From a virus: a DNA stretch of 64,000 nucleotides. Numbering within the stretch: the stretch's first letter is position 1; every line of letters begins with the position of its first letter. Positions 1 to 47,413 of the stretch are shown here, piece after piece. The notes beneath the pieces are model-generated. The model saw only the letters and a list, made by a program, of their open reading frames with translations. It had not been told where the DNA came from and made no database searches. Position numbers and translations under genes: made by a program. The stretch lies in IMG/VR virus record IMGVR_UViG_3300029319_000004, positions 32,001 through 96,000 of that record. The stretch is one strand, 5' to 3'.

Positions 1-42
1 AATGAGGACTCCTCCAAAGCGAAGCAGCTTCTTTTAGATTGA
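1..42 (+). CDS. 3' end of an upstream gene (partial)
   Basis: Frame 1 reads NEDSSKAKQLLLD then TGA at 40-42; too short to assign a function. Confidence 0.3.
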   Translation, partial: NEDSSKAKQLLLD

Positions 43-81
43 TTTACTCAGACGCTTGGGGTGCCTACTATACTAGTGTAT

Positions 82-161
82 GGGACAGTATCTCCTCGCT
101 CTTATAAAGCGTAGAAAGAGTAGTCGGTTACACGTGGGTTCAAACCCCACCTGTCCCACCA
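82..161 (+). tRNA. tRNA-like gene, anticodon TAT (Ile/AUA), non-canonical arm order, encoded CCA
   Basis: Acceptor stem GGGACAG (82-88)/CTGTCCC (151-157), discriminator A158, CCA 159-161. T-arm GTGGG-TTCAAAC-CCCAC (134-150). Anticodon hairpin CGCT-CTTATAA-AGCG (97-111). No D-arm lies 5' of the anticodon arm. Confidence 0.75.
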
Positions 162-177
162 TTAATGGAGGACGATA

Positions 178-387
178 ATGAAAAGAAGCTTAACAATGTT
201 TATTATTGCTGGAATATTTTTTGCTGGCTGTGCTGGTACGCAACCTAACGTTGCAACTGTCACTATCAATGTACATACCCAGCCCAGTATTCACTCTTTC
301 TACACTTACGAAAGACGATGCAAAAAAAGAAACCCGCAAATTTATCAAAAAGTATGCAAGACAGTTTTAATCAAACATAAATCATGA
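178..387 (+). CDS. small predicted lipoprotein
   Basis: GGAGG RBS; basic N-terminus, hydrophobic stretch and lipobox FAGC. Confidence 0.65.
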   Translation: MKRSLTMFIIAGIFFAGCAGTQPNVATVTINVHTQPSIHSFYTYERRCKKRNPQIYQKVCKTVLIKHKS

Positions 388-602
388 GTGGCGTTAACAG
401 ATATTTAGAAGAGTACGAAAAGTACAAACATGTTCAGCTTGAAATTGATATTGTTTACAATAAAAAATCACGCACTTCTGAGCGTATGGTTATCTTAGAG
501 ATAAACAATGACGAGGACAAAGCGCAAGTAAAGAACCTTCGTACAGAAAATATTCAATATAAAACGCTACATTGGTGTAGGAAAAACCTAATTAAAGAGT
601 GA
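384..602 (+). CDS. hypothetical protein
   Basis: 72-aa ORF coupled to the previous gene by an ATGA overlap. Confidence 0.6.
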   Translation: MSGVNRYLEEYEKYKHVQLEIDIVYNKKSRTSERMVILEINNDEDKAQVKNLRTENIQYKTLHWCRKNLIKE

Positions 603-26971: not shown

Positions 26972-28770
26972 TGAGTAAAATGAACAAAAAACTAATCAGA
27001 TACACTGATAGAGATTTTAATACGATAAAAGAAAGTCTTGTAAATTATGCAAAAAGATATTATCCTAATGTTTATCAAGATTTTTCTGAGGCCTCATTCG
27101 GGTCTTTAATGTTGGATACCGTGTCTTATGTTGGAGATGTGCTTTCATTTTACTTAGATTATCAAGTTAACGAATCTTTTATTGACACAGCAACAGAGTA
27201 TGACAATGTTTTAAGGCTTGGAGAACAAGTTGGATACTATCCATCATTAAGGTCTCCATCATTCGGAATAGTTTCTTTATATGTTCTTGTTCCCACCAGC
27301 CCAAACGGCAGCGGCCCAGACACAGACTATCTTCCAATAATTACTAAAGGAAGCAAATATTCTACTATTGCTGGAGATACTTTTGAGCTTACAGAAGACG
27401 TTGATTTTTCAAACCCCAACAATGAAGTTGTGGCAGGGACTGAGGAGCAACAAGGTGGTGGAGCAACATCATTTGTTGTAAAAGCGTATGGAAAAGTTAT
27501 TTCTGGAGAATTAAAAGAACAAAATATAACTGTTGGCGATTTTTCAAGATTTTTAACTGTGTCTCTTGCAGATGAAAATATTACTGAAATTGTTTCTGTT
27601 ACAGATACTGAAGGACATGAGTATTTTCAAGTTCCATTCTTATCTCACGATACGGTCTTTAGAACAGTTATAAATAAAGATCCAGCTACAAGATCCAAAG
27701 CTCCTAGTATTTTAGTAACCACTGCAGTTCCTAGAAGATTTATTAGCTTTGTAAGAGACCAAAGAGTTCATTTAAAATTTGGATATGGCTCTGAATCTTC
27801 TTTAAGAACAGACAATACAACTCACCCATCAAATGTAGTTTTAAAAATGCACGGTCGGGATTACGAAACTGACACTGGGTTTGATCCATCTAAATTATTA
27901 GAAAGTGACAAATTTGGTATCGCGCCGGCAAACACTGTCCTTAACGTTGTTTATCGTGCAAATACTTCTGATAATTCAAATACCGCAACTGATAGTATTT
28001 CATTTATTGGAGATCAGACGTTTATTTTTCCCGAGTCTGCGGATAATTTAGAAAAAATTGATTTTGTAAGAGGTAGTTTAGAAGTCTCCAATGAGTTTCC
28101 AATAGTAGGAGATGTTAGCATCCCAACAACTTCTGAGTTGAAGCAAAGAATAAATGATCTTTTTGCAACACAAAACCGTGCTGTTACTGAAGAAGACTAT
28201 AGATCTCTTATTTATAGAATGCCAGCTAAATTTGGAAAAGTAAAAAGAGCAAAAATTGTTAGAGATCAGGATTCTTTTAAGAGAAACTTAAATTTGTATA
28301 TTGCCTCTGAAGATGAAGATAGAAATCTTATTACTTCAAATGCTGTAATAAAAAACAATTTAAAAACTTTTTTGCAACACTACAAAATGGTTAATGACAC
28401 TATTGACATTCTTGATGCTAAGATTGTAAACGTTGGAATTGAATTTGTTGCGGTTATTAATACCGATCAAGACAAGTATCAAGCTCTTAGTGCAGCAATA
28501 AAAACGCTGCAAAACGAAATGTTTGCAGAAAAATATGACATAGGACAGCCAATATATATAACAAACATATATGATATGTTAAACAATTTAGATGAAATTG
28601 TTGATGTTGTTGATGTCAGAATAGTCCCTAAAACAACTGGGCTTTATTCAGATTTCTCTCTCAATATTAATGAATATGTTTCAGCAGACGGTAGAATTTT
28701 ATACGCTCCTGAAGATGTTATATACGAAATCAAATATCCTAATAGAGACATTAAGGGGACCATAAGATAA
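26971..28770 (+). CDS. gp6: baseplate wedge subunit, gp6/baseplate J family
   Basis: YTDRDFNTIKESL...DFSEASFGSLMLDTVSYVGDVLSFYLDYQVNESF and QNRAVTEEDY. Confidence 0.9.
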   Translation: MSKMNKKLIRYTDRDFNTIKESLVNYAKRYYPNVYQDFSEASFGSLMLDTVSYVGDVLSFYLDYQVNESFIDTATEYDNVLRLGEQVGYYPSLRSPSFGIVSLYVLVPTSPNGSGPDTDYLPIITKGSKYSTIAGDTFELTEDVDFSNPNNEVVAGTEEQQGGGATSFVVKAYGKVISGELKEQNITVGDFSRFLTVSLADENITEIVSVTDTEGHEYFQVPFLSHDTVFRTVINKDPATRSKAPSILVTTAVPRRFISFVRDQRVHLKFGYGSESSLRTDNTTHPSNVVLKMHGRDYETDTGFDPSKLLESDKFGIAPANTVLNVVYRANTSDNSNTATDSISFIGDQTFIFPESADNLEKIDFVRGSLEVSNEFPIVGDVSIPTTSELKQRINDLFATQNRAVTEEDYRSLIYRMPAKFGKVKRAKIVRDQDSFKRNLNLYIASEDEDRNLITSNAVIKNNLKTFLQHYKMVNDTIDILDAKIVNVGIEFVAVINTDQDKYQALSAAIKTLQNEMFAEKYDIGQPIYITNIYDMLNNLDEIVDVVDVRIVPKTTGLYSDFSLNINEYVSADGRILYAPEDVIYEIKYPNRDIKGTIR

Positions 28771-30617
28771 TGGCGATCAAAAGATACTATGCAGAGGCCG
28801 ATAATACAATAACAAATGCATTTGACACCGTGTTGTCTCAAAGAGGAACAGGATCCAATGCAGGGGCAAATGATGTTTTAGAAACATTTTCAATTTACGG
28901 CCAATACAGTACTAGCTCTACAGAGCTTTCTAGAATTCTAATAAAGTTTCCTGTTACTGGGACAACTAGTGTTAAAGCCGATAGAGATGCGTCAAACCTG
29001 CCTGCGTCTGGTAGTGTTAAATTTTATTTAAAAATGTTTAACGCTAGACATCAAGAGCAGCTGCCTGAAAATTTAATTCTTAGTATTTTTCCAGTTGCGA
29101 GGAACTGGGAAGAAGGAACAGGCATTGACCTTGTTAATCATGCTGATAAAACAAAAGATGTTATCCCTGGCTCGAATTGGGTCAATAGAACAAAAGGTGT
29201 TGCTTGGGTTCGAAATGGTGGAGATTATATTTCTGGAAGTGCAAACTCAGCAGTGTGGTCTACGGCCAGTTTTGTTACTGGATCCGAAGATCTAGAAGTT
29301 GATGTTACTGATGTGGTAGAAGAATGGATAAGCTCTACAGAAGTAAAGGCTACAGCGACAATAACCTTTACTGAAAAACCGCATGAAGCAACAACAATTA
29401 CCTTAGTTGATGGTGATGGAACATCTGCAACGTTCGAGATTGACGATAACGAAGATGGTGTTGTCGCTGGCAATATTGCCATGAACCCCGCTTCAGACGA
29501 CGCCGCAGGAATGGCTACGATTTTATTTCAAAAAGTAAATGCATCCGCATTGAAAATCACAGCGACTAACCCATCATCTGGCCAGGTTGTCTTAACACAG
29601 GATACAGCAGGGCGAGTTGGAAATACTACAATTACTTATAGTAATTCTACTAGTTGGAGCGACAATACATCAGGTACTTTACCAACAGCTTTTACCGGAG
29701 GCACCGGCGTAGTTAACTATGGTTTTGGAATCATGGTCACAAGCAGCCAGGAAGCTTATCGCGCAACGGCAGACTCTGGGTCTGAGTTGCAAAACACAGA
29801 TGGAATAACTAAGTCAACCTATACTAAAAGATTTTATTCTAGGAGTTCTGAATATTTCTTTAGAAGGCCTGTAATTGAGGCTCGCTGGGAAGATAGAATC
29901 AGTGATGACAGAAATAAGTTTTTTGCTAGTAGTTCTCTGTGCAGCACACAAAATACTCAAAGCGTCTACTTGTATAATTATATTGATGGAGTATTAACTA
30001 ACTTACCTGACGAATCAGTTACAATTAATTTTTATGCTAGCTCTGGATCATTGCCAAGTGGCTCTTCTATCGCCAATACAACAGCCACAAAAGTTAGCAC
30101 TGGAATATATCGAGCTGCTTTGGCGATAAACACTACCGAGTCAGTTTTGCATGATGTTTGGTCAGAGACTGATGGAGGAAGTGTATACCATACAGGCACA
30201 ATTTCTGTGCGAACACGAAGTGCTAGCGATTCAAATAAAATTGGTGATTTTATTAGCAATATAACAAACTTAAAAGATACATACAAAAGAACTGAAAATG
30301 CAAGAATAAAAGTTTTTGTTAGAAGAAGGAATGAGTGCCCTACTGTGTACACAGTGGCTACTAGTGTTGCAGAGGGAGAGACAATTGTTAGTGCATCGTA
30401 CTCTGTCGTAAGAGATATAGATAATAAGATAATTTTTCAGCATAGCACAGGCAGTTCAGATAGACATACATTCTTATCGTATGATAATTCTGGTAGTTAT
30501 TTTGATTTTGATATGTCGTTGCTAGAGGCTGGATATATGTATGGGTTTAAGTTTGCTTATTATGCCGCCGGAAAGTGGAGAGAGCAAGAAGAACTGTTTA
30601 AATTTAGAGTAGAATAA
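28770..30617 (+). CDS. baseplate/tail-associated structural protein with one inserted beta-sandwich module
   Basis: ADNTI...SRILIKF...NWEEGTG...GGDY...DLEVDVTDVVEEW pattern (DNRLRE-like); interrupted by a module at 29349-29702. Confidence 0.65.
   Translation: MAIKRYYAEADNTITNAFDTVLSQRGTGSNAGANDVLETFSIYGQYSTSSTELSRILIKFPVTGTTSVKADRDASNLPASGSVKFYLKMFNARHQEQLPENLILSIFPVARNWEEGTGIDLVNHADKTKDVIPGSNWVNRTKGVAWVRNGGDYISGSANSAVWSTASFVTGSEDLEVDVTDVVEEWISSTEVKATATITFTEKPHEATTITLVDGDGTSATFEIDDNEDGVVAGNIAMNPASDDAAGMATILFQKVNASALKITATNPSSGQVVLTQDTAGRVGNTTITYSNSTSWSDNTSGTLPTAFTGGTGVVNYGFGIMVTSSQEAYRATADSGSELQNTDGITKSTYTKRFYSRSSEYFFRRPVIEARWEDRISDDRNKFFASSSLCSTQNTQSVYLYNYIDGVLTNLPDESVTINFYASSGSLPSGSSIANTTATKVSTGIYRAALAINTTESVLHDVWSETDGGSVYHTGTISVRTRSASDSNKIGDFISNITNLKDTYKRTENARIKVFVRRRNECPTVYTVATSVAEGETIVSASYSVVRDIDNKIIFQHSTGSSDRHTFLSYDNSGSYFDFDMSLLEAGYMYGFKFAYYAAGKWREQEELFKFRVE
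29349..29702 (+). repeat. single copy of the ~100-120 aa ATATITF...FTGG protein module
   Basis: ATATITF-TITLVDGDG-TFEID-ATILFQKVN-ITAT-VVLTQDTAGRVGNTTIT-FTGG; same motif order as the copies in the 30639 and 37505 proteins. Confidence 0.7.
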
Positions 30618-36600: not shown

Positions 36601-37430
36601 CTGAAAAAACTGACTTTGTCATATCCTTGACTGATGCAAGATCGAATACTATAAATATTTATTTAATGTCCTCAAAATGGGCCCCAGCCTCCCTAATTTT
36701 TTGGGAAGATAAGTATAAAGTAGCGAATATTGCTCATACCGTCGATGCGGTCGACGAGGTGGGTTTAGCTGCTGCTGTTATAGCAACTTTTAATGCCGCA
36801 AGATCAATTTTTGATAATACCGCTGCAGATGCACTCCCCGGAGCCGGCCATGCCTTTGGCATTACTGCAACTAACGCTGCTGATACTATTTCTTTCTTCC
36901 AGTCGACCCCAGGCTTTGTTGGCAATACAAATATATATATTAGACAGGTTGATCAAGCGGAAACAACAAAAATGGTTGATGTGTCCTCTGATGTAATTCA
37001 GCTTAAAAACTTTGCTGGTGGGAAAAATGCAACATCTAGAGTTTATCGATCTCAAGCTGTGGAACCACCTCAGCCCGGTGTTATAGAAAAAGCTGATTAT
37101 ACAGTCGTAAGTGCTAGCTTTCACAAGTACCACAGGAATAGAGCTGACAAGTTCTTTTTAAGCGACGCAACACAAGAAAACATGTATTATGATAAAATGC
37201 AAGAAGCCACAAGTAGTTTGTCTAAAATTGATTTTCCAACAGACATCCTAGCGCGAGGTTCAGTTTATGACAATGCTTATATTGGTCACGCAATTCCTCG
37301 CTCAGATGACCAAGTTCACTGGGTCAGAAGCGTTAATGGGTTAGTCCAGGAGCAGCTAAATTTGGAATATGAGGATAACGATCCAATATTGAAATTCTTA
37401 GACTTGATTATAGCCTATATCAAGCCGTGA
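30639..37430 (+). CDS. 2263-aa baseplate/tail-fibre protein with LamG-like and MAM-like domains
   Basis: LamG motifs ITVEFWLKK, WHHYAVTV, LYVDG and FDEFRYWKTERNAQQI; second degenerate LamG; MAM-like GPANDSGDGTTYFAY...IQFYYHV...WKLAEINL...IDQVKV; one repeat module near the C-terminus. Confidence 0.75.
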   Translation: MSTKDLFDKGYSLNFLKNKSLTDYREDVESPRYIDAYIKKRERFFPDVNYATASNFAAYGLAEEYYKQSIERIYKTYPYDGSLAEKLEWENESTYLDLFIFENEYPRSTGYIVFNSSSYSYTDTKTGNFYSSSAPQYVYFYGNPHADVSGNFKEPPTAGPSGVGVSKANVYETGSQRTSNLEIDLEKGITVEFWLKKTSWATQNAAAEVLFSNITDETSTETRFWISSSNTAKGKITAELFSTPVIATFEHDTGLSDIGDGAWHHYAVTVKRSGNTNVSNLYVDGVHKSKKTSGAGGTFTNITASTVAAIGAISKDVDGFYGAGYGNVVGCSFDEFRYWKTERNAQQIGRHFRDQIGGGTNTDNVKYDKTHNPVDLGVYFKFNEGITGDSSIDSTVLDYSGRISNGTFVNYQSSSSRNTGSAMVSASVAEREFKDPIIYSSHPSVISLIQEKTRDGAVHDHENATSIFKSLPGWIAEEDEEKSGNLKYLIQIMSSVFDEIQLQVGSIPKLKDINYPYDAKFEKPLPFADRLLSSRGLDAPELFSDASLLAKFLQRGEKKLFEKKLYEIKNTIYQNIYNNLTYIHKSKGTMKSMRNLLRCFGVDEELVKINIYSKNGTYEFKDNVSHMALRKKYADFDDLETRFGTTGIYSGTFASTVYQYYDSTNANSLSYIPALADVSHGLAATIEAEVIFPKRTPQRDDNFGLFPGREVSLFGLHAVEASNTNLNYLNDNINFNVIAVKSNNDPRSVKFAVTSNSNSNIPHMETTGTFMGVYDNEKWNLAFRIRPVKHPLADKVNDSLVPAASSYQVELYGVNYLSDQLQNEFTLTQVLSEANARAFFSKAKRLFVGANRTNFDGDLVRASDVKISSVNMWYDYLEDDEIKAHARDANNDGRAHPYRNAIFNEGTQNDLIAGGDSDLLWTFRVPEIDTLVLSWNFENVTGSNSDGQFLVNDISSGSAEDRTNLRYGALSEVNTYHFSGRGDKFVANSDQAVDIEFVPTGRTRLPEVIASDDMVKILNQQDDVMFTRDTTFIQHIISVEKSMYQSISEEMLRMFATVTDFNNIVGSPVNRYRMNYKELSKLRNIFFEIVQNEPDIEKYIEYFKWIDDAISLFIFQLLPASSNKVEFLRTMVESHILERSKHFNKFPTIEMFNPEPNEAFKGINQLLYNWKIGHAPLQSNGSGPSQTQNQHMHSLWWKERAERTGSGAVLTSGDDNIDASKHEILKVAITETSGNDSLSLSFGPSGLDKADGKYGAQGGTKTKYSASYYSDRSTSTPVRVTQSFVKTYKSGPNPDSNKIYDFYKGVVKFASDNDYIFLDKDHVVKPLDSTDVLQAEKSSSSEGFYLPNKKEYVIKALTMTGDEISSSNAAGTGDSDYKYTDALNKLTTPFSMFANKGVANGDYTVFYENYFENGHHNSQNDTTRIEINNLHHDIYRPTFEVPMQGPFNRQHVGGNQHRHVSLNYRDYDSFGSLGSLDTRMSRPEAWELVHDKGMSNYIILDMPFSRYNMPPEMSGSDPTTGHVDGGHGFGDPEPRDRWRNVTKNDKLAGSINGWQRTTFISDPDCGPANDSGDGTTYFAYARLENEENNATKYFGYRTPLIDAHDAHRGLKIQFYYHVTSAPNLETGRFFVDYSYDEDFSDGGTSLTTTWDKGAAGQESAVDLPKTLEQASKNASWKLAEINLSAFMGQRVYLRFNYIAAPHSFNICAIDQVKVFAEAGISSLRLLHPTHDDHHRPYAPYMREEYAKRPVNIKNIQIGKLNSNGNLNSLHAGDFGALQRTVAGNYRNTYEYVSTVSREANDPAFKKLVETLPESSNPQEGMQEIASMYLGYSDSFPVLFSSQKTQHGTENRLARYLTVHQIENGVTSSSEVTSNAISVNPVPGRDREEFHKGIEARYRQKTRMVNLFSAPGDILDSCTGFLDEAHTTYSAYNCLPWRNYRIRQRMQSMLTAHCGRFGIGSHTQDAVAASGSIKFKDIATLKSYLDAAPEKTDFVISLTDARSNTINIYLMSSKWAPASLIFWEDKYKVANIAHTVDAVDEVGLAAAVIATFNAARSIFDNTAADALPGAGHAFGITATNAADTISFFQSTPGFVGNTNIYIRQVDQAETTKMVDVSSDVIQLKNFAGGKNATSRVYRSQAVEPPQPGVIEKADYTVVSASFHKYHRNRADKFFLSDATQENMYYDKMQEATSSLSKIDFPTDILARGSVYDNAYIGHAIPRSDDQVHWVRSVNGLVQEQLNLEYEDNDPILKFLDLIIAYIKP
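36540..37022 (+). repeat. copy of the ASGSIKF...NFAGG module
   Basis: ASGSIKF-VISLTDARSN-LAAAVIATFN-ITATN-ISFFQSTPGFVGNTNIYI-NFAGG. Confidence 0.6.
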
Positions 37431-37504: not shown

Positions 37505-40500
37505 ATGTCAAGAAGCAGATATATTACACTCGAACAAAGCAGAGCAAGCAGAGCAAATAGAGCAACCACTTTTACATCAGTTAAAACTTATACTCTTGGA
37601 TCTAGAAACACAGCCTCAGTCACGGCTTCATCAGAGTTTGTTCCTCTAAACACTCTTATTGTTGATAATTTTCCTGAAACTTCTAAAAAAGGGTCATGGT
37701 ATCTATATGTTTTTGATAATCCCACCGGTAGTTTTTTTCAACTAGAGACGCCTGAAAAAACACATAAGTTTATAGCTGTTAACGACACAACTCCACTAGT
37801 GCCAGCTAGTGCTAGCATAAGTGTAGTTGCAAATCAAGCAGTTGCCAAAATTACTTTTGATGGTACTACAATTCAAAATGGTGAAAATTTTAGAATTATT
37901 GACGGTGAGGGTAAGACAACTTTGTTTACGTTTGATACCGGGTCAACATCGTCTACTGGAACAACTGTTGGTTTATCGGGAAGATCAACCACAAGCACTA
38001 TTGCCACTGCTGTTGCTTCATGTATTAATTCTGAATCAATCAAAATTACAGCAACTGCTTCTGGAAGCAGTGTAGAGCTAAAGCAAGATATCTTTGGAAG
38101 CCATGGAAACACACTAACACAGACTTCTGGGAGTACAACTTTAAACTCCGGATATAGAATTTCTAATTTTTCCGGCGGTCGAGGACTAAATTATTCCTCA
38201 CACAATCAAACAATTACTTTTTCTGATGCTTCAAATAATAGTTACAGCGCATCAATAGACGGGGGGACACGATCAACTTTGTCTATTGATCTGGTTTCTA
38301 TTGATAATATTGCTTCTAGTGCAGCCGCCTCAGGCTCAATAACAGTAACAGACTACTCAGCTTTAACAGCTGCGACTACAGCATCAGCTACGGTTTCGGT
38401 TTCAAGCGCGAACATAACTGCTGGAGACACTATTAGGCTAATTGATTCCTATGGCTACGCGCATTCATTTAGGGCAGTTGCCTCTCGCGGCAATGAAAGT
38501 ACAGATTATATTTTTGACTCAGGAAGCTCTAGCACTACAGCAACAAATTTAGCTAGGATAATAAATCTAAATAATTCTTTTTCTGCCTCTGCATCCTCAA
38601 ATAACGTTACAATTACTCAGTTTGTTGGAGGTGCTGCAGGAAATACAACCATTACAGTTACAGACTCAACAGGTAGCGCCGGTCTTGAAGTTACCTCCAA
38701 CTTTTCATCAGGTGCAGATGGTACAAAAATTGTTTTAACGTCTGCGGATGGTCAGCAATATAATTTATTAGCTGATAGTAAAGTAACGTCTGGTGATGTA
38801 TCAACTACAACTGCTTCTCCTACCTTTAGAGGAAATACACTATTTTTTAAGATTGGCTCAACAAACGCAGCCACAGCAACTAATATAAAAACTGCGTTAA
38901 ATCAAATAGGAGCATTTAATTCTTCTATTTCCAGTAATGTAATATCTGTCACTCAGCAATTTGCAGGAACCTCTGGAAATATTTCTATAACAGAGAATTC
39001 ATCTGGACTGACTGCAGATGGATTTGCTGGTGGCACTGCTGGGGACTCATTTGTCTTTACAACAAGACACTCTGATAGCGTAACTCTTCGAGCAGGAGAA
39101 AATTTTCTTGTTAAGTCTGGAGATAGAGAATTAACAAGAGACAATTTAATTTCCTCTATTAATTTAAACCCAATTTTATTTGCTAATTTTACTGCTTTTC
39201 CACACGATTGCGATCCAGGCATTGCAGTTTTAACTTCTCGCAGGGCTGGTACAAGCGAAAATTCTCATTCTGTTTCTTTTTCTTCTACTAGTACTGCAGC
39301 TGGCGATATTAAAATTCAAGATACTGCAATAACAAATAGTAGAAGCATATCAGCTCAATCTTTTGTCTCAGGGGCTGCATCGGCTACAACATCAAAAACA
39401 ATTATTGGAGTTAGCAGCGTTACTACTCCAACGGAGTTTGCTGCAGAAATAAATACTTCTTTGGCAGCAGCAATAACTGATGGACTAAAAGCCACCACGT
39501 CTGCTAGTGGAGCCACAGTTTCTGTGGTGTCGTCAGTTGCAGGATCTGCAGGAAATAACACCATAAGTGGTTCATATGTTTTTGGATATAATGCATTTAC
39601 CTCTGGCTTTTCTGGTGGTGCAGACAATGTGCATGTAGGTTCTAGCAAGACAGACTATGCTACTAATCTTGTTTCTAGAATAAACACGTCTTTATCTTCT
39701 TATGTTACTGCAACTCTTGGAGATCTTACAACAATAACTGCGCCGCGACATCCTCCAACTGGAAAAATTACATTTGTATCTACCACTCTTAGCGATTACA
39801 CATCGCAGACTATTACTATAAGCGGACTGGAAAAAACTAAAACTTATAAATTTTCTGATGAGTGTGGAGACACTGGGGAATTAAGCGGATCTAGTGTGAT
39901 GGTCTACTTAGGAAACCAAACAACCATAAATGTAAATAATATAGCTAATGAGTTTGTTGGTGCATTAAATCATTCGAATGGCCACGGGTTTAACATTAGA
40001 GTTAAAAACCCCTCCAGCGGAGTCATAATTTTATCTCTAAAACATGGTACTGAAAATTCTATTACAGCTATGTCAAAAACCGCTGCAGATTCTGTCATGA
40101 CCAAGGAAGATATAACGCAACAGACTGCAGTTCCAATTACAATTGCAATGAAATTTGGAGGAGACTTTAGGGACGCATATCCAGCATCAATTAGCATAGA
40201 TGGTAGTCTTTTCTTAGATAAGACACCTTCAACTAGTTGTGATTCCTGTGAGGATGATGTAGATAATCATTTCGAGACCGGCCCAATAGGTGGAGAAGGC
40301 CCATCGATTATTAATTTTGACAATATTAAAGGTGGAGGAAACACAGATACGAGTGACTACCTCAACCCAAATTATCAAGATTTTTATGGCTCTGGCTCTC
40401 AAGCAAACTCTGATGGTCTTTTAAACGATATATTAATAAACAGAAATGGAATTTACGAGTATCCCACTTTTAAACAATATGGCGAGATTATTGAAAAACT

Positions 40501-43500
40501 TGGTGGAGGAAACTATTATACCACACCTCCGCTTGGTATGGGATTTCAGCCACCAGAATATGATACTGCTTTTGAGATACCTCAGCCTACAGGTGATGGC
40601 CCTCCATACAAACTAGGTGCAATTATTTTAGATGGCGATGACGATAATATTCCAGATAATGCAACGTTGGGCGAACTAGGTGAAATTGGTGAAGGCGACG
40701 TTTTTGATCCAAAACCTAGAATTCCTGGGCTTCCTCACCTTCGTGCTAAGCCAGTGCAATATTTTTATGAGCCGGCTTTAGAGGATAGACATAAGCCATT
40801 GATTTATCAATTTGCTTCTGATGAGGGATCTCCAAATTCAGTCGCAATTGCAAGACAGACTTTGTTTAATGGTATTCACTTTTTTTCAAACAAGTATCAA
40901 AATATAAAATATAGACTTTTGGATGGAGATGCTAGAGACTTCAAAGTTGGTTCGCTTAGAAAATCTCATTTATATGATTTATTTAGGGCTGCTCGCGCAA
41001 TGGGAGGTCGAAGATTTAGGTTTAGAGAGCGTTTGTTCCCAGGAGAGTTAAATTCAAGAAGATCTCAATTAAATAAGCGCCCTGATTATCATGAACTAGA
41101 TAGTATTGTTGCGTTTGACGGTCAAAAAATAGATCCAAAACAAGATATAGATCACAGAAAAAGATTGACCGATCTTAGAATATTTTGGAGAAACAAACAA
41201 GTAGATAGGGTAAGAAACATACGAGCTAGCCATGCAGATGAATCAGTTTTTCTTACGCCTACAAGCTCTTTAGGTGGTGTATATCAACCCTCTCCAATCA
41301 CCAAAGATGGAATGTTTCACGAGATAAGACAAATATCTCATGGTTTTTATGTTCAGCCTGGAGATTTAAAAGATCAGCTTGCAGGCTCTGATGGACGTAA
41401 GCATCATATTGCTGCTGGTATATCTACAAGATATCAAATGGCTAAAACTGCAGACAGCACACCAAATCTAAGCGAAAATGCTATAGTTATCAATGATGAA
41501 AGACATGAGGGCAATCTTAATGCACAATCTGGCACACCACAGCAAGAACCTGTAAAACTAAACAGCTCTATGATTGAGGCTATAGTATTACCTACTTCTG
41601 CCATGCAAGGTATAGATTCCCCATTTTTGCCTGAAGATTCTTTAATTGTTGCATTTTCAGCAACATCTGCATCCTTCATAGACTCAAATAGCCAAACTGT
41701 AACTAATGATGTTGATGTAGGTCATGAAATCCACTACAATCAACCTTTTGATTTTAGTTTAATAAGTATGTGGCCTTTAGATTTCCCAGAATATCTCCGT
41801 TTGCCCTTCAAGCCAAAAAGTAATGTTCCTACCCTGCAAAGCCCTGATAACTCAACTTATCAGGTTTTGGATAGTGGGCCTTTTGTTTATGGAATTCAGA
41901 GAGTTGGTCTTGCCCCTAACAGAATTGCTCCTGATAGAGTTGAGGGTGCAAATGGCACGCCTGTTCCTAATTTTTATGAATTTCTCGAAAACAATCCTCA
42001 TGCTTCTAAATTATTTAATCAAGAATATGCGAACAGGCTTGGAGACCCTAAGCTAGCAACACATGGTCAAAATCCAAAAAATCAAGTTACTGGAGCCGCA
42101 GGCGAGCTTTTGTTCAGCACCAAGCCGACAATCACTTTGTATAATAAGCACGCATACAGAAGGCCTTTGCCTTTTCCAAGCAACGGCTTTTTACCGGGAG
42201 GCAAGCAGTTTTATTCAAACTTAACTACTAATTCTCCAAGTGAAGCACTGCTTTTCGCCGCCGCATATGTTTTTAATGGCGCAGAATTTAGTGAGCCAAT
42301 ATTTGTTGATGATGCTTCAGATTTGATAAGAGGATATGGTATTGTTAGTGAGTTGTCTAATGAGCTTGAAACTACAGAAACTTCCCTTGCTAGCGCTATT
42401 TCTAGTGCAGAGCCAAATAGTGAAACTCTTCTTAGCAGCTACGAGCCAAAACCAGCTATTTCTTTTCAAGGAGGAAAACTAATAGGTGATTCAGACAAGA
42501 AAGAAGATTCCAGCGGTCTAATAGCGCAAGATGTTGGCACAGCATATAAATATGATTATAGCTCAATACATCATACTGCATTTTTAAGAGACGGAGCACC
42601 TGCACCAGGAACTACATATGACTATAAGCTCGTCTTGGGAAAGGCCGCAGGTGCGAAATTTACTACTATAGAAAATCGCGATAGTTATTTTACTTTAGAG
42701 AGGGCAGCAGAGGGTGCAGCTGGGTATGCTAGTGCAACAGCTAGTATGCAATATTTACGTCATGCTTGGCCTTATTACCAGCCAATATGGAGATTGGATA
42801 AGTTAACTGGTCGCTCTCCTTTTCATGACTCATATCAAGATTTTACTAATGATGTTGATATTGTTGGCCGTGGATATTCACAAATTGCAGAGTTTACAAT
42901 TTCAGATCATTTTGAACACTACAATGATTTCTTAATTGAGTCTATTAATAATGACAGGCCTGTGTATTCGATTACTGAATTTAATAGAATTAAAAGAAAC
43001 TTAAATGTTCCAATTGATTATGCTGCTAACTTTGCAAAAATTATTGGATCATCAAATGTTGGTGATGTGCAAGTTTCTGTTCTGGCTGGCCAGTTTGGTC
43101 TTTTAAATGAGTCTCCAAGAGTTATACACACTGCTAGTGCCATGTCCTCTACTTTTAATGCAACCTCTACAATGCATGATTTAGAATATGCAGACTACAC
43201 TGTTGTATTAAATTCTTTATCTGCCAGCCAATATGAAGAGGCGAATGGACACTGGAGAATGGATTCTCACAGTACAGCCTTTATGCCAAAATACATGCAG
43301 GCTGATGCTAGCAAAAACTTTGCAAAACTGTCGCGACAAAACGATAGAGGGTTTTTAGATGATAAAGATACTATACCAAATAAAATTACTTTGACTGTTA
43401 AATCAATTAAAAAGCTCTTGCCTCAGAAAGATATGTATCCTTTGTTTAGAACAATGAAACTTGGCTCAATGTTAACGGATGCATTTTCTGACTCAATAAG

Positions 43501-46500
43501 TTACTCTACTAGAGAATACGATGGAATAAATTCTGGCGTGACTGACTCTCACAAGGCTGCTGCTGCAACACAAAGCTTTTTAGAACCTCTTTTTGCTCCT
43601 GGAATCATGTTTAATTCAATTAAATCTGGGTTAGGAGTTAGTTTTCCTATTTTTGTTGATGAAGGAGCCGGCCGCGGCGCTCCATACTATTATGGCAATC
43701 CTCACATATATGGTCCATGGGGACCATCTCCATTTACCTCCTCCGGCCAGCAACATGCAGGATATGATAATTTAGCATATAGAATAGATGATCCTGTTAC
43801 AATGTTTAGTTATGGATTAGCCAATAGTGCTGGAGTTAATAGAACGGCGCCAACATATTTGATGCGTAGGCCAAGTTTTCAGTTGCCTTTTGAGGCAATA
43901 TATAAGCCAAATTATTTAGAAATAATGAAAAAACGCAAGACTTATATGGTTGATGATCTTTTTGATCAAACAAGGTCAACTTATGTTACAGGGGCCTATA
44001 ATCAGATAGAGTATGAGACCGGCACACCAGGCGGATCACATGAATGGACATTTACAACTGCGTCAATTTCATATGTTATTACAGGAACTTCTAATCATGC
44101 TCACATGACAGGTTCAAGATTTACATTGTCTGCTTGGCATGCGCAATCAGGAGAGAAAACAAAAGATTTTGATAGCCAGACACAGTTTGATTATGGAACT
44201 CCAGAGGACACATTTTATTGGGAGTTTAAAAATCATCCCCAAAGTGCTTTAGACCCTTCAATAGCTTTATTTCCAGAGATAAATAGCTTAACTGCCTCAG
44301 TCGATGATGAAAGTATTGATGATTTTCCATTATTTTTGAATTATAGATTTGAAGGCGTTGCTAATGACACTGATGCTGTTAATATAACAGGATCTCAATT
44401 TTTAGTAGGAACTACTCCATACGAGTATGCTACAAATTTAGCAGACGCAATCAATCGTCGATGCAAAGTTACTCATTCAGTGCAAACAGGCTCAACACCA
44501 TCTTACGATATTGATGGAAATGAAGTGGTGGCTTCTAGTAAAACTATGAAGTTACGTATTCATCAATTTTTTACAGCTAGTGTGCTAGTGGATACCACAG
44601 GAAAATTTGGTCAACCGGTCGGACAAGTTGCAAACGTGCTAACAATACACACTGCTGGCCCATTAATGAACCATGGAATAAAAGAAGGTATTTTGTACTT
44701 TAACGATAATGATGAACTTGTTACTTTTGATGACACAAATATTCATCCTCTTGTATTTGCTAGAGAAATGAGACTTCCAATTGGAGACGCCAACGCAGAT
44801 TGTATATTCGGTACCCCCATATGCCATACATCATCACATGGTAAAAGATTTACCAGTTCTACAACTGCACTAGGACAAGTGAATCATTCCTATGGCTTTT
44901 TCGATAGACCAGGAAGTTCTCACTCTAGAAATGTTGCGCAACATGAATTTAAGCCTCATGTCCTTCTGTACCCAGACATGCCAGATACTGGCAGTTTTCA
45001 AAGTAGATTATATGAAGCATCAATTAATAACTTTTTAGCAGAAACAATTAATTTCTTTATAGATTCTGAAAGTGAAGGCAGGTACTATGATTTAAAAATG
45101 CCAGTTATTGTATCTGATCCAATAGAAACTGTGCCGGTGACGTCTGGTACGGTATATTACATGTCTGTAAATCTATACATGGGCAAAAGCCACATTATGT
45201 GTGAAGGCCCTAGGTTTGCAAATATGCCTCACGCAGCTCATAATGCATCTTCCTCAATGAGAGGTGCTTTTTTTGGGCCACCAATGGAGGTTGTGCACCG
45301 TGATTCTAAGATAAATGGACCCGCTAGTGGAGGATACACAAGTGATGCTGAGGCAATGAGTTCTAATTTAACAGACCCAGCCTATCATCATGTAACACCC
45401 CCATATTTTTATGGCCCATCATCTATTCTATTGCGATACCAAGCTACCAGCAGTGGCGATGTTACAATTGATGATATATGGACAAATACTAAAAAATCAT
45501 CATTATATTTTGAAGAATATATTACAGACATTCCAGATGGATCAACTACTACAATCGGAGATGAAGTCCCGGTATCCGACTTTTTCTTCCCAACTTCGTC
45601 GTTAAGTCCAAAAGTGCCGACAAAAAAATCTGTATCGCAAGGCTCGGCTGCAAGAATGAAATTAGAAGAGTGTGTTGATGTTTGGTCTCCAAAAAATCTT
45701 GTTGAAGTACAGGCGCTTGATCCAGCAACAAACATCCCCTCTGCAACTCCGACAAAAGTTTGGGCTATGACTCCAAAATGGGTTTGTCCCGTTTTAGATT
45801 TTGGTCTGCCGGCAACACTTTTCATGTCTGCTAGCTCATATGATTCTTTTGATAACAAAATATTTGAATCTTCATTTCAACTTAATGATCCAGCAATTAA
45901 GTCAACTTTATCTTACTATAACATGCTTACAGGTAGATCTATGTGGACTGGATACGGAATTGACCCATATGATGGGTCAGATTTAAAAAGAATTGAATTG
46001 TATATGAACAAACAACAACTTCTTAAAAAACAGTTTGAAGATTATTATGAAATTTTAAAACAAGATGAATTAGAAAATGGAAATATAGAAAAAGAAACTA
46101 TCGCTTTTGTGGTAGAGCCAGATCAAGATGTTTCTTCTGTTAATAAAAAAGGAATTTATTTTCAAATATCAGAAACGTTCCCGGAAGAGCTTGCAACACA
46201 AGCTGCTTCTTCTGTCACATTCCAAACCCCATACGAGGGTGCAGAAAATGCTTCCGGATATTATACCTCCAGAGAAGAAGTGTTTTCATCAACTAGCGTA
46301 ACATCATCTCTTGTACCCTTGCTGGGCTTTAACGATACAAATAGAAGGCCAATTGGAAAAATTTCAAAGAGCAAAGTCGTCTCTGAGGCTATTGTCGCTA
46401 TCCCTTATCTACCCAAGCCTTTTGGAATATACGGAAAAATTAGAGGAACTGGCCCAGATGGATCAGTAATTGCATCTAAAGATTTGCTTAGTCTTGTGGA

Positions 46501-47413
46501 AAAAGGACCTGATCAATCTTTAGTAAGAACTTTGATGGCTACTACTGAGGTTATTCCAGGATATCACTTTTTGTCGATTGACAATTTGGTTTTTGATAAT
46601 TTCTTGAATACTATTTTAATAGACTTTTTAACTCCAAACAGCTCACCCAGAAGTGAAGAGTTAAAGCAAAGGTACGAAAATTATTCAAATGCATTAGAGA
46701 TATGTGATGCTAGTGATCTAGGAATAATGATAAACACACTCCTAGGTCGTGTTGGCCCATCTAAGCTTGGCTATATGCTTCCGCCAGAGATGGACTTCAT
46801 AAACAATTCAGCGATTGCACCTTTTCAAATGGCTGTAGTTCCTCTTGCTCACGAGTTAGACAAAAGAGATCTTATGAATATGTGGCAAAATATAATGCCA
46901 GATATATCTACTAAATTGATAAAATCTGTTGATAACATTTCGTTTAATCCAAATGCAAATTTCTTTGGAACGCCTGAAGCTGAATTTGACTTATTGGCAA
47001 TATCTAAGACTGGTGGAAATCTAGGATCGCCTCCGCTAGCCGAAGTTTGCCCGGGCCAGTTCTTGAATACTAAATCTCTTTCAAAGAATTTTCAAAAAAC
47101 TTTTGAAGACGATATACTTCCTTATAATATTCCATTCATCCCTCCTAATTCATCTGCTTTTTTTGAAAAGCTTAAGTGGCTTGTATTTAAAGTAAAGCAG
47201 CGCGCTGCAAAAGATTATGAAACCTACAGAGAGCGTCAAATAGATGCTGCAATTGCTTCGAAAGGATACCAAAGAAAACAACAACAAAACTTGCAATATT
47301 CTGCTCTAGATTGTCTAAATACAAAAGAGATCTATGGTGCAAACTGGCCCTATGATTTCTTCTCATTAACTGAGAGAGCAAAAATAGAAATTGAATATGA
47401 GGTGCAGTCTTAA
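37505..47413 (+). CDS. giant 3302-aa virion structural protein with nested S/T/A-rich repeat modules
   Basis: Uninterrupted 9.9-kb ORF in the tail cluster; the N-terminal ~900 aa are built of the repeated module. Confidence 0.8.
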   Translation: MSRSRYITLEQSRASRANRATTFTSVKTYTLGSRNTASVTASSEFVPLNTLIVDNFPETSKKGSWYLYVFDNPTGSFFQLETPEKTHKFIAVNDTTPLVPASASISVVANQAVAKITFDGTTIQNGENFRIIDGEGKTTLFTFDTGSTSSTGTTVGLSGRSTTSTIATAVASCINSESIKITATASGSSVELKQDIFGSHGNTLTQTSGSTTLNSGYRISNFSGGRGLNYSSHNQTITFSDASNNSYSASIDGGTRSTLSIDLVSIDNIASSAAASGSITVTDYSALTAATTASATVSVSSANITAGDTIRLIDSYGYAHSFRAVASRGNESTDYIFDSGSSSTTATNLARIINLNNSFSASASSNNVTITQFVGGAAGNTTITVTDSTGSAGLEVTSNFSSGADGTKIVLTSADGQQYNLLADSKVTSGDVSTTTASPTFRGNTLFFKIGSTNAATATNIKTALNQIGAFNSSISSNVISVTQQFAGTSGNISITENSSGLTADGFAGGTAGDSFVFTTRHSDSVTLRAGENFLVKSGDRELTRDNLISSINLNPILFANFTAFPHDCDPGIAVLTSRRAGTSENSHSVSFSSTSTAAGDIKIQDTAITNSRSISAQSFVSGAASATTSKTIIGVSSVTTPTEFAAEINTSLAAAITDGLKATTSASGATVSVVSSVAGSAGNNTISGSYVFGYNAFTSGFSGGADNVHVGSSKTDYATNLVSRINTSLSSYVTATLGDLTTITAPRHPPTGKITFVSTTLSDYTSQTITISGLEKTKTYKFSDECGDTGELSGSSVMVYLGNQTTINVNNIANEFVGALNHSNGHGFNIRVKNPSSGVIILSLKHGTENSITAMSKTAADSVMTKEDITQQTAVPITIAMKFGGDFRDAYPASISIDGSLFLDKTPSTSCDSCEDDVDNHFETGPIGGEGPSIINFDNIKGGGNTDTSDYLNPNYQDFYGSGSQANSDGLLNDILINRNGIYEYPTFKQYGEIIEKLGGGNYYTTPPLGMGFQPPEYDTAFEIPQPTGDGPPYKLGAIILDGDDDNIPDNATLGELGEIGEGDVFDPKPRIPGLPHLRAKPVQYFYEPALEDRHKPLIYQFASDEGSPNSVAIARQTLFNGIHFFSNKYQNIKYRLLDGDARDFKVGSLRKSHLYDLFRAARAMGGRRFRFRERLFPGELNSRRSQLNKRPDYHELDSIVAFDGQKIDPKQDIDHRKRLTDLRIFWRNKQVDRVRNIRASHADESVFLTPTSSLGGVYQPSPITKDGMFHEIRQISHGFYVQPGDLKDQLAGSDGRKHHIAAGISTRYQMAKTADSTPNLSENAIVINDERHEGNLNAQSGTPQQEPVKLNSSMIEAIVLPTSAMQGIDSPFLPEDSLIVAFSATSASFIDSNSQTVTNDVDVGHEIHYNQPFDFSLISMWPLDFPEYLRLPFKPKSNVPTLQSPDNSTYQVLDSGPFVYGIQRVGLAPNRIAPDRVEGANGTPVPNFYEFLENNPHASKLFNQEYANRLGDPKLATHGQNPKNQVTGAAGELLFSTKPTITLYNKHAYRRPLPFPSNGFLPGGKQFYSNLTTNSPSEALLFAAAYVFNGAEFSEPIFVDDASDLIRGYGIVSELSNELETTETSLASAISSAEPNSETLLSSYEPKPAISFQGGKLIGDSDKKEDSSGLIAQDVGTAYKYDYSSIHHTAFLRDGAPAPGTTYDYKLVLGKAAGAKFTTIENRDSYFTLERAAEGAAGYASATASMQYLRHAWPYYQPIWRLDKLTGRSPFHDSYQDFTNDVDIVGRGYSQIAEFTISDHFEHYNDFLIESINNDRPVYSITEFNRIKRNLNVPIDYAANFAKIIGSSNVGDVQVSVLAGQFGLLNESPRVIHTASAMSSTFNATSTMHDLEYADYTVVLNSLSASQYEEANGHWRMDSHSTAFMPKYMQADASKNFAKLSRQNDRGFLDDKDTIPNKITLTVKSIKKLLPQKDMYPLFRTMKLGSMLTDAFSDSISYSTREYDGINSGVTDSHKAAAATQSFLEPLFAPGIMFNSIKSGLGVSFPIFVDEGAGRGAPYYYGNPHIYGPWGPSPFTSSGQQHAGYDNLAYRIDDPVTMFSYGLANSAGVNRTAPTYLMRRPSFQLPFEAIYKPNYLEIMKKRKTYMVDDLFDQTRSTYVTGAYNQIEYETGTPGGSHEWTFTTASISYVITGTSNHAHMTGSRFTLSAWHAQSGEKTKDFDSQTQFDYGTPEDTFYWEFKNHPQSALDPSIALFPEINSLTASVDDESIDDFPLFLNYRFEGVANDTDAVNITGSQFLVGTTPYEYATNLADAINRRCKVTHSVQTGSTPSYDIDGNEVVASSKTMKLRIHQFFTASVLVDTTGKFGQPVGQVANVLTIHTAGPLMNHGIKEGILYFNDNDELVTFDDTNIHPLVFAREMRLPIGDANADCIFGTPICHTSSHGKRFTSSTTALGQVNHSYGFFDRPGSSHSRNVAQHEFKPHVLLYPDMPDTGSFQSRLYEASINNFLAETINFFIDSESEGRYYDLKMPVIVSDPIETVPVTSGTVYYMSVNLYMGKSHIMCEGPRFANMPHAAHNASSSMRGAFFGPPMEVVHRDSKINGPASGGYTSDAEAMSSNLTDPAYHHVTPPYFYGPSSILLRYQATSSGDVTIDDIWTNTKKSSLYFEEYITDIPDGSTTTIGDEVPVSDFFFPTSSLSPKVPTKKSVSQGSAARMKLEECVDVWSPKNLVEVQALDPATNIPSATPTKVWAMTPKWVCPVLDFGLPATLFMSASSYDSFDNKIFESSFQLNDPAIKSTLSYYNMLTGRSMWTGYGIDPYDGSDLKRIELYMNKQQLLKKQFEDYYEILKQDELENGNIEKETIAFVVEPDQDVSSVNKKGIYFQISETFPEELATQAASSVTFQTPYEGAENASGYYTSREEVFSSTSVTSSLVPLLGFNDTNRRPIGKISKSKVVSEAIVAIPYLPKPFGIYGKIRGTGPDGSVIASKDLLSLVEKGPDQSLVRTLMATTEVIPGYHFLSIDNLVFDNFLNTILIDFLTPNSSPRSEELKQRYENYSNALEICDASDLGIMINTLLGRVGPSKLGYMLPPEMDFINNSAIAPFQMAVVPLAHELDKRDLMNMWQNIMPDISTKLIKSVDNISFNPNANFFGTPEAEFDLLAISKTGGNLGSPPLAEVCPGQFLNTKSLSKNFQKTFEDDILPYNIPFIPPNSSAFFEKLKWLVFKVKQRAAKDYETYRERQIDAAIASKGYQRKQQQNLQYSALDCLNTKEIYGANWPYDFFSLTERAKIEIEYEVQS
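37802..40200 (+). repeat. six to seven interleaved copies of the beta-sandwich module
   Basis: Recurrent A.A.ITF / TI.L.D..G / AT.(I/L)A..IN / VT.TQ..G..GN..IT / F(S/A)GG motifs. Five FxxG ends lie at ~38170, ~38705, ~39025, ~39365 and ~39610. Confidence 0.7.

Follow-up and report, generated by a model that had tools for sequence, protein, structure and literature searches.

A giant, putative virion protein of a phage carries a probable recursive insertion array built from one small beta-barrel module

The 3302-amino-acid (aa) product of a single open frame in an uncultured marine phage, here called P0001, very probably carries at residues ~64-890 a recursive insertion array, in which copies of one ~110-aa module lie inside other copies of the same module. 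The encoding open reading frame (ORF; 37505..47413, + strand) lies in the 64,000-nucleotide stretch analysed here, hereafter the window, which comprises bases 32001-96000 of a 180,711-bp record (IMGVR_UViG_3300029319_000004) that has direct terminal repeats and is rated complete. We hold with good confidence to a parse of these residues into about seven module copies, O[ A[ B ][ C[ D[ E ] ] ] ][ F? ], where each bracket encloses a guest and "rest" below denotes the part of a copy that follows its last guest. Three nesting levels (C > D > E) are well supported and five (O > A > C > D > E) are probable, because the outer pieces are modelled at low confidence and C rest and O rest + F match the module only faintly.

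In the module, about eight strands form a small beta-barrel against which one helix packs, and the motifs follow a set order: a first strand of the form A-x-A/G-T-I-T-V, then G-D/E-T-I-x-L-x-D, a helix ending A-I-N, V-T-V-T-Q, G-x-x-G-N and a final N-F-x-G-G. With B as the seed and 51 related proteins as the search set, we built a profile that converged on 94 module copies; it gave full-length matches (positions 2-117) for B (E-value 1.8e-34, residues 110-225) and for copy E (E-value 9e-26, residues 291-403). D rest was matched at positions 16-117 only (E-value 2.4e-15, residues 404-510) and therefore lacks strand 1. A rest was matched at positions 38-117 in orthologues, with E-values of about 1e-10 to 1e-12 (2.6e-12 tabulated), and aligned by hhalign to the helix-to-end part of the profile (E-value 7e-6). 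Comparison of the segments with one another by BLAST related B, copy E, D rest, A rest and, faintly, F at 24-37% identity, and matched F to B with an E-value of 3e-4 (six-sequence set). Host and guest are homologous in that B, copy E, D rest and A rest fit one profile; C joins them by fold only. A preliminary description of this DNA had read the module parts as copies of one another, and the profile matches of 1e-34 to 1e-12 show the repeat to be real. No Pfam model covers the module, and its bearers among the relatives are all unnamed in annotation.

The first strands that stand apart from the rest of their module were located with a strand-1 position matrix from which the family of P0001 was excluded. 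Within residues 61-900 the matrix reached at least 8 bits at exactly four sites, namely 101 (A strand 1), 112 (B), 275 (D strand 1) and 293 (E), compared with 0.43 such sites in shuffled sequences and a top score of 4.4 in the C-terminal 2400 aa. The lone strand of A scored 8.5 bits, that of D 15.1 bits, and the corresponding stretch of F 7.3 bits.

The segments of the array are listed below in window coordinates; pLDDT is the predicted local distance difference test score in the two structure models described after the list.

37694..37801, +: N-terminal part of O, tentative (residues ~64-99, WYLYVFDN...KTHKFIAVND; kept in P0002, P0006, P0008 and P0045; pLDDT below 50)
37802..37837, +: orphan strand 1 of A (residues 100-111, ASASISVV; 8.5 bits; strand predicted at low confidence; kept in orthologues)
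37838..38179, +: B, a complete contiguous copy (residues 112-225; profile E-value 1.8e-34; pLDDT 75-86)
38180..38266, +: proposed strands 2-3 of A (residues 226-254, QTITFSDASNNSYSASID; placed by sequence order only; collinear in P0008; low pLDDT)
38267..38317, +: orphan strand 1 of C (residues 255-271, TRSTLSIDL; first aligned block of a compact domain in model 1)
38318..38374, +: orphan strand 1 of D (residues 272-290, ASGSITVTD; 15.1 bits; pLDDT about 90 in model 2)
38375..38713, +: E, the complete, contiguous, innermost copy (residues 291-403; profile E-value 9e-26; absent from P0008)
38714..39034, +: D rest, without strand 1 (residues 404-510; folded together with the D strand in model 2; follows its strand directly in P0008)
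39035..39373, +: C rest, without strand 1 (residues 511-623; completes a sheath-type domain with the C strand in model 1)
39374..39619, +: A rest (residues 624-705: strand 4, helix, strands 5-8, FSGG end; hhalign E-value 7e-6; pLDDT below 60)
39620..39751, +: O rest, tentative (residues 706-749, NVHVGSS-KTDYATNLVSRIN-YVTATLG; weak orthologue matches at profile positions 49-~100, independent E-values 0.04-0.14; low pLDDT)
39752..40108, +: F, a diverged copy (residues 750-~868; inserted in O or simply following it; pLDDT below 50)

Within these segments, the proposed pieces of A are a strand at 100-108, strands at 236-252 and the rest at 631-705, and those of O are 64-99, 706-749 and perhaps ~870-890. 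The positions given in the preliminary description were all correct, both for the motifs (PASASISV at 37802, residue 100; B at 37838-38179, residues 112-225; AASGSITV at ~38320, residue 273; E at 38381-38713, residues 293-403) and for the segment boundaries (D rest ending at residue 510, 39034; C rest at 623, 39373; A rest at 705, 39619; PPTGKITF starting at 39752, residue 750).

Structure prediction brings the separated pieces of C and of D together. Model 1 (AlphaFold2, residues 40-900, from an 8-row alignment, with numbering that starts at residue 40) is usable for B, E and D (pLDDT 65-91) and moderate for C. Residues 92-185 of 8kee_A, the contiguous outer domain of the A-1(L) cyanophage sheath, were superposed on model 1 over the range 216..569, with 93 of 94 residues aligned at a root-mean-square deviation (rmsd) of 1.9 and a Z score of 12.5, the typical best background Z of the superposition tool being 7-8. 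Residues 81-182 of the Sf14 sheath aligned over nearly the same range (218..570, Z 10.3). As this 94-residue domain spans 354 model residues, C would consist of the lone strand at ~255-263 together with residues 514-608. E (252..366) and B (68..189) fit the same sheath domains contiguously, and B matched residues 86-177 of the PhiTE sheath at Z 9.5 (rmsd 2.1, 88 aligned, 25% identity). FliD D2-D3 (5xlk_A) aligned 135 residues over 234..442, a range that takes in the D strand, E and part of D.

Model 2, confined to D[E] (residues 268-512), reached a pLDDT of 77.6 and a predicted template modelling score (pTM) of 0.74, with the D strand at a pLDDT of about 90. In this model E (24..133-139) matched 8kee_A (Z 9.5), FliC 4nx9 (Z 8.1) and FliD 6kty (Z 7.6-8.4), and small single-domain chains aligned over 2..245 or 5..243 while skipping E, that is, over the D strand and D rest. 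Among the matches to D were residues 89-202 of the Milano sheath (Z 5.2, rmsd 2.5 over 72 aligned residues) and a 75-residue protein (Z 5.0, rmsd 2.9 over 67 aligned residues). The models thus predict C (strand ~255-263 plus 514-608) and D (strand ~272-281 plus 407-512) to be single compact domains made from separated pieces, and B and E to be contiguous ones. With E predicted inside D and D inside C, a guest is itself a host over two or more levels. The preliminary description had expected discontinuous domains A, C and D in an AlphaFold model; C and D appeared as such, and A was poorly modelled.

The same order of segments is found in the orthologues P0002, P0003, P0045 and P0006+P0005, at 40-73% identity to P0001. 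At 35% identity, P0008 is collinear with P0001 from the outer start to C strand 1 and then carries one contiguous module, the end of which joins C rest exactly as D rest does, such that E is missing and D is unbroken. Comparison of orthologues, proposed earlier as a way to find other nesting depths, therefore yielded a natural protein with one level fewer. In the search for more orthologues, IMG/VR yielded just a 99% twin (L002), a metagenome scan returned none, and searches of 5.8 billion proteins for orthologues returned fragments only. An assembly artefact was considered and rejected, as the twin contig and four orthologue fragments retain the order.

Across the wider family, profile matches fall into two kinds, full ones (positions 2-117) and ones beginning at positions 14-22, and the latter always lie directly after another module. 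In P0007 two orphan strands precede one full module and then two strand-less modules, and P0010, P0050, P0049 and P0012 have one orphan strand and one strand-less module each. Where full modules stand singly or in tandem, as in about 18 proteins, no orphan strand lies upstream. P0015 (L003:521-4189) shows a second arrangement at residues 70-390, with two N-terminal halves, a full module and two C-terminal halves in succession, split between strands 3 and 4, where the second guest of A is also proposed to sit. Its N-halves are about 95% identical to each other and its C-halves about 80%, so this nesting is recent. The P0015 locus has a phage-like context, with PhoH, dUTPase and glycosyltransferase genes. 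A longer ladder was found on an ENA scaffold (L004:1629-6064), where the ORFs P0052 (751 aa) and P0014 (687 aa), separated by ten N, make up one gene that contains a stack of 7-8 orphan strands, a single full module and eight modules that lack strand 1; its nest would run to about nine levels.

The D[E] nest also recurs outside the orthologues. Aligned with P0010, it gave one high-scoring segment pair of 157 columns (40% identity, E-value 6e-18) that runs from the outer strand through the inner module into the outer rest, and it is likewise collinear with the nests of P0050 and P0049. Because D[E] lines up, even across the junctions, with nests of two levels in phage proteins that are otherwise unrelated, nests appear also to move as cassettes.

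Several observations weigh against the recursive array. By hhalign, C rest is faint (E-value 0.07), and so is the combination of O rest and F (E-value 0.16), in which F is collinear with the profile from strand 1 to the helix; both results are too weak to use. C strand 1 scores about 0 on the strand-1 matrix. Model 1 is poor overall (mean pLDDT 53, pTM 0.33), the models derive from shallow alignments of 8 rows, and A rest (pLDDT below 60) and O and F (below 50) are poorly modelled, so that the two outer levels and the branch points stay putative. The structural matches to D are modest (Z 4-5), the E-value of Foldseek against the PDB never reaches 1e-3, discontinuity was read from the first and last aligned residues relative to the aligned length rather than from coordinates or predicted aligned error, and the role suggested below is drawn from relatives only.

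It is conceivable, though in our judgement unlikely, that only the inner part is nested, with B free-standing, C[D[E]] a three-level nest, and A, O and an inserted F an over-reading of short Ser/Thr/Ala-rich strands and of partial, decayed remnants of modules serving as linkers. Such an account would fit the pLDDT below 50 in all A, O and F segments, the weak hhalign result for O rest and F (E-value 0.16), the failure of any profile to identify the N-terminal part of O as module, and a score for A strand 1 of just 8.5 bits compared with a mean shuffle maximum of 7.2. It sits poorly, however, with the behaviour of A. A rest matches exactly the part of the profile (38 to end) that is missing after strands 1-3, the strand 3/4 insertion site is used cleanly in P0015, and the A pieces are kept and collinear in orthologues down to 35% identity; FliC D2/D3 also aligns weakly over A strand 1, B and A strands 2-3 (model 1 64..216, Z 4.2-5.1).

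We therefore keep the full array as the preferred reading, with its parts graded. The preliminary description had placed copies inside the loops of other copies, up to about four levels deep. For C and D this stands, on the strength of the models, the E-less P0008 and the bracket rule in relatives, and of the five levels in our parse C > D > E, plus the whole copy B, are backed by models. That A has two guests (B and the C nest), that an outer module O exists and that F belongs in it we infer from the order of segments along the chain, because pLDDT there is low.

Two further readings concern the orphan strands themselves. It is very improbable that each completes a strand-less module of a neighbouring subunit and so zips an oligomer by intermolecular swapping. 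Fibre and baseplate proteins of virions mostly occur as oligomers and the models here are monomers, but orphan strands and strand-less modules balance inside single chains family-wide, the monomer D[E] model is confident with the strand in place, and linkers of 3-10 residues suit bracket pairing within the chain. A plain tandem array, with orphan strands as unstructured linkers and truncated profile matches as alignment artefacts, is scarcely credible despite the low-complexity composition (Ser/Thr/Ala/Gly-rich) and the plain tandem full modules of some family members (for example P0017, P0030 and P0048), since the models give a discontinuous C and D, P0008 lacks E, the half-modules of P0015 are separated by a whole module, and the truncation is constant in its profile start positions.

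The recursive array may be understood from the geometry of the module. Its first and last strands would be neighbours, so that the two ends lie together and the module can be inserted into a loop. Two of its loops would in turn accept guests, one after strand 1 and one between strands 3 and 4, both being sites seen in relatives. A module that is both insertable and insertion-tolerant could be applied to itself repeatedly. The chain would then pass through one lone first strand after another until it reached the whole copy at the centre, and return by finishing the outer copies in reverse order, and the array would begin and end at one point of its carrier and project as a stack with two connections per joint. 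An earlier suggestion of a branched, tree-like appendage overstates this, as the parse describes one there-and-back stack (O-A-C-D-E) with side domains, B on A and F on O. Growth probably proceeded partly by the import of ready-made nests, as the D[E] cassette suggests, and elsewhere in the family by local duplication, as in the recent case of P0015. Since the same domains sit on sheaths, nozzles, baseplate J-like proteins and flagellar filaments, the array is probably an exposed decoration, or an adhesion or bracing projection, of a baseplate-attached protein. We consider it an even question whether the module family at large is a general recursion-prone building block of phage tails, used for there-and-back rods and small trees, with depths from one to at least nine (L004) and with nests that move as cassettes.

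On the evidence of the models, the module belongs to the fold class of sheath outer domains (T4 gp18 domain I type), FliD D2-D3 and flagellin outer domains. Its structural neighbours (Z 6-12.5, VIA) are the sheath surface domains of A-1(L), PhiTE, Sf14, Milano and Mu, the T7-type nozzle, T4 gp11, FliD D2/D3 and Pseudomonas aeruginosa flagellin, with Z 9.1-12.5 to the A-1(L), PhiTE and Sf14 sheath domains and Z 7-8.4 to FliD and FliC. Against BFVD, the D[E] model found its best structural match in a protein of Rhodobacter phage RcTitan (A0A0K1LKT2) over 248 columns (E-value 9e-12), and it also matched baseplate J-like and sheath proteins. One family member, P0056 (892 aa), carries the phage sheath C-terminal domain PF17482 of Pfam, so the same module also occurs in a genuine sheath protein. 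P0001 itself was rejected as a tail sheath protein because the sheath core is absent, with no match in Pfam, PHROG or PDB sequences. It was likewise rejected as a flagellin or FliD relative, as the core domains are absent and the likeness is confined to the fold and the helix ending A-I-N. Searching residues 61-900 against Pfam gave no match even with E-values up to 1, and no flagellin/FliD D0/D1 or Flagellin_IN.

The large ORFs of the window all lie on the + strand, and P0001 stands in a block of giants of 1229, 3684, 2263, 3302, 1334 and 1002 aa. Pfam, PHROGs and NCBIfam returned nothing on P0001 and most of its neighbours, a phage genome collection searched by DNA and by protein held no match to P0001, and comparison of its C-terminal 1003 aa with the ESM Atlas gave unusable scores of 0.80 or less. 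The identifiable genes of the window are PIN-PhoH, two glycosyltransferases, a primase and a Mre11-Rad50-like fusion; the last (61072-63999, +) joins in one frame a Mre11/SbcD-type phosphoesterase and the N-terminus of a Rad50/SbcC-type ATPase (Pfam Metallophos and AAA_23/SMC_N). The sole hint to the role of the giant-ORF block is a 599-aa ORF upstream of P0001 (26971-28770, +), which weakly matches the baseplate-assembly family TIGR02243 at an E-value of 8e-5, far below the family cut-off. Because of this neighbour, P0001 probably belongs to a baseplate/fibre gene module.

A search of the genome found further module copies. One (29331-29783, +; E-value 1e-17) interrupts a structural 615-aa ORF at 28770..30617, and another lies outside the window (G000:C1:120739-121224, +; E-value 8e-15) in a 1324-aa open frame. 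A copy placed by the preliminary description at 36540-37022, in the 2263-aa ORF, was not recovered in this search. In P0004 (359 aa), the first 36 residues are identical to a C-terminal stretch of P0001 (NYRFEGVAND...YEYATNLA) and the remainder is identical to the orthologue P0002, the two parts meeting at a common YATNLA helix motif; P0004 is probably a co-assembly chimera. The comparison also exposes a degenerate stretch resembling the module far into the C-terminal part of P0001.

These observations supply a parsing rule for giant, mostly unannotated phage virion proteins, in which lone first strands are counted against strand-less modules; linear domain finders miss or truncate nested copies. 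Self-nesting of this fold, known until now to a depth of one level in a flagellin, reaches three to five levels in P0001 and about nine in L004, and for evolution the observations suggest that nests move as cassettes. Should the family prove recursion-prone, giant virion proteins could arise by a separate evolutionary path alongside tandem repetition, one undescribed for phages, or for this fold beyond one level. For protein design, the array may offer a natural scaffold that can gain domains at its tip with its two ends kept together.

The earlier view that such an architecture and mode of growth were undescribed does not hold, as both have been published for other proteins. Recursive domain insertion has been defined as A1-B1-C-B2-A2 (PMC13114784). 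In T4 gp18, domain I is inserted in II and II in III, III lies between the termini that form IV, and domain I, a surface-exposed six-stranded barrel plus helix, is itself a guest domain (PMC3004832); the extra domains of sheaths are built from two chain regions (PMC9230969). In the flagellin of Geovibrio thiophilus, D5 is a duplicate of D4 inserted in a D4 loop, D4 being FliD-D2-like (PMC11532411). In Si3 of cyanobacterial RNA polymerase (RpoC2 beta'), SBHM-2 to -5, copies of a sandwich-barrel hybrid motif (SBHM), are formed from distant chain segments (PMC10895346), and a 2026 survey describes a six-level recursion with bifurcating nodes (PMC13114784). That survey makes no mention of phages or flagella, and our literature queries for nested domain insertion in phages and for Russian-doll flagellin gave nothing relevant.

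Compared with these systems, Si3 resembles the P0001 array in having copies of one small beta domain inside copies of itself; it differs in being built from the sandwich-barrel hybrid motif rather than a barrel and helix, in belonging to a cellular enzyme, in being experimentally solved rather than predicted, and in its unrelated sequence. The sheaths, with T4 gp18 as the example, are likewise phage tail proteins with a Russian-doll chain, and their outer domain gives the top structural matches of the module. Their nested domains, however, are of differing folds with one copy of this domain, whereas P0001 would nest the same module in itself up to five deep and, unlike them, lacks the sheath core (no match to a Pfam sheath family). 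Flagellin and FliD D2/D3 share the fold class and the hairpin-like there-and-back chain; there the nesting is of one level, compared with three to five in P0001 and about nine in its relative L004, and the setting is a flagellum, where that of P0001 is a phage. Given the precedents in gp18, the sheath extra domains, flagellin D4/D5 and Si3, the principle of nesting is already known, and what is new is this module family, its depth and its cassette behaviour.

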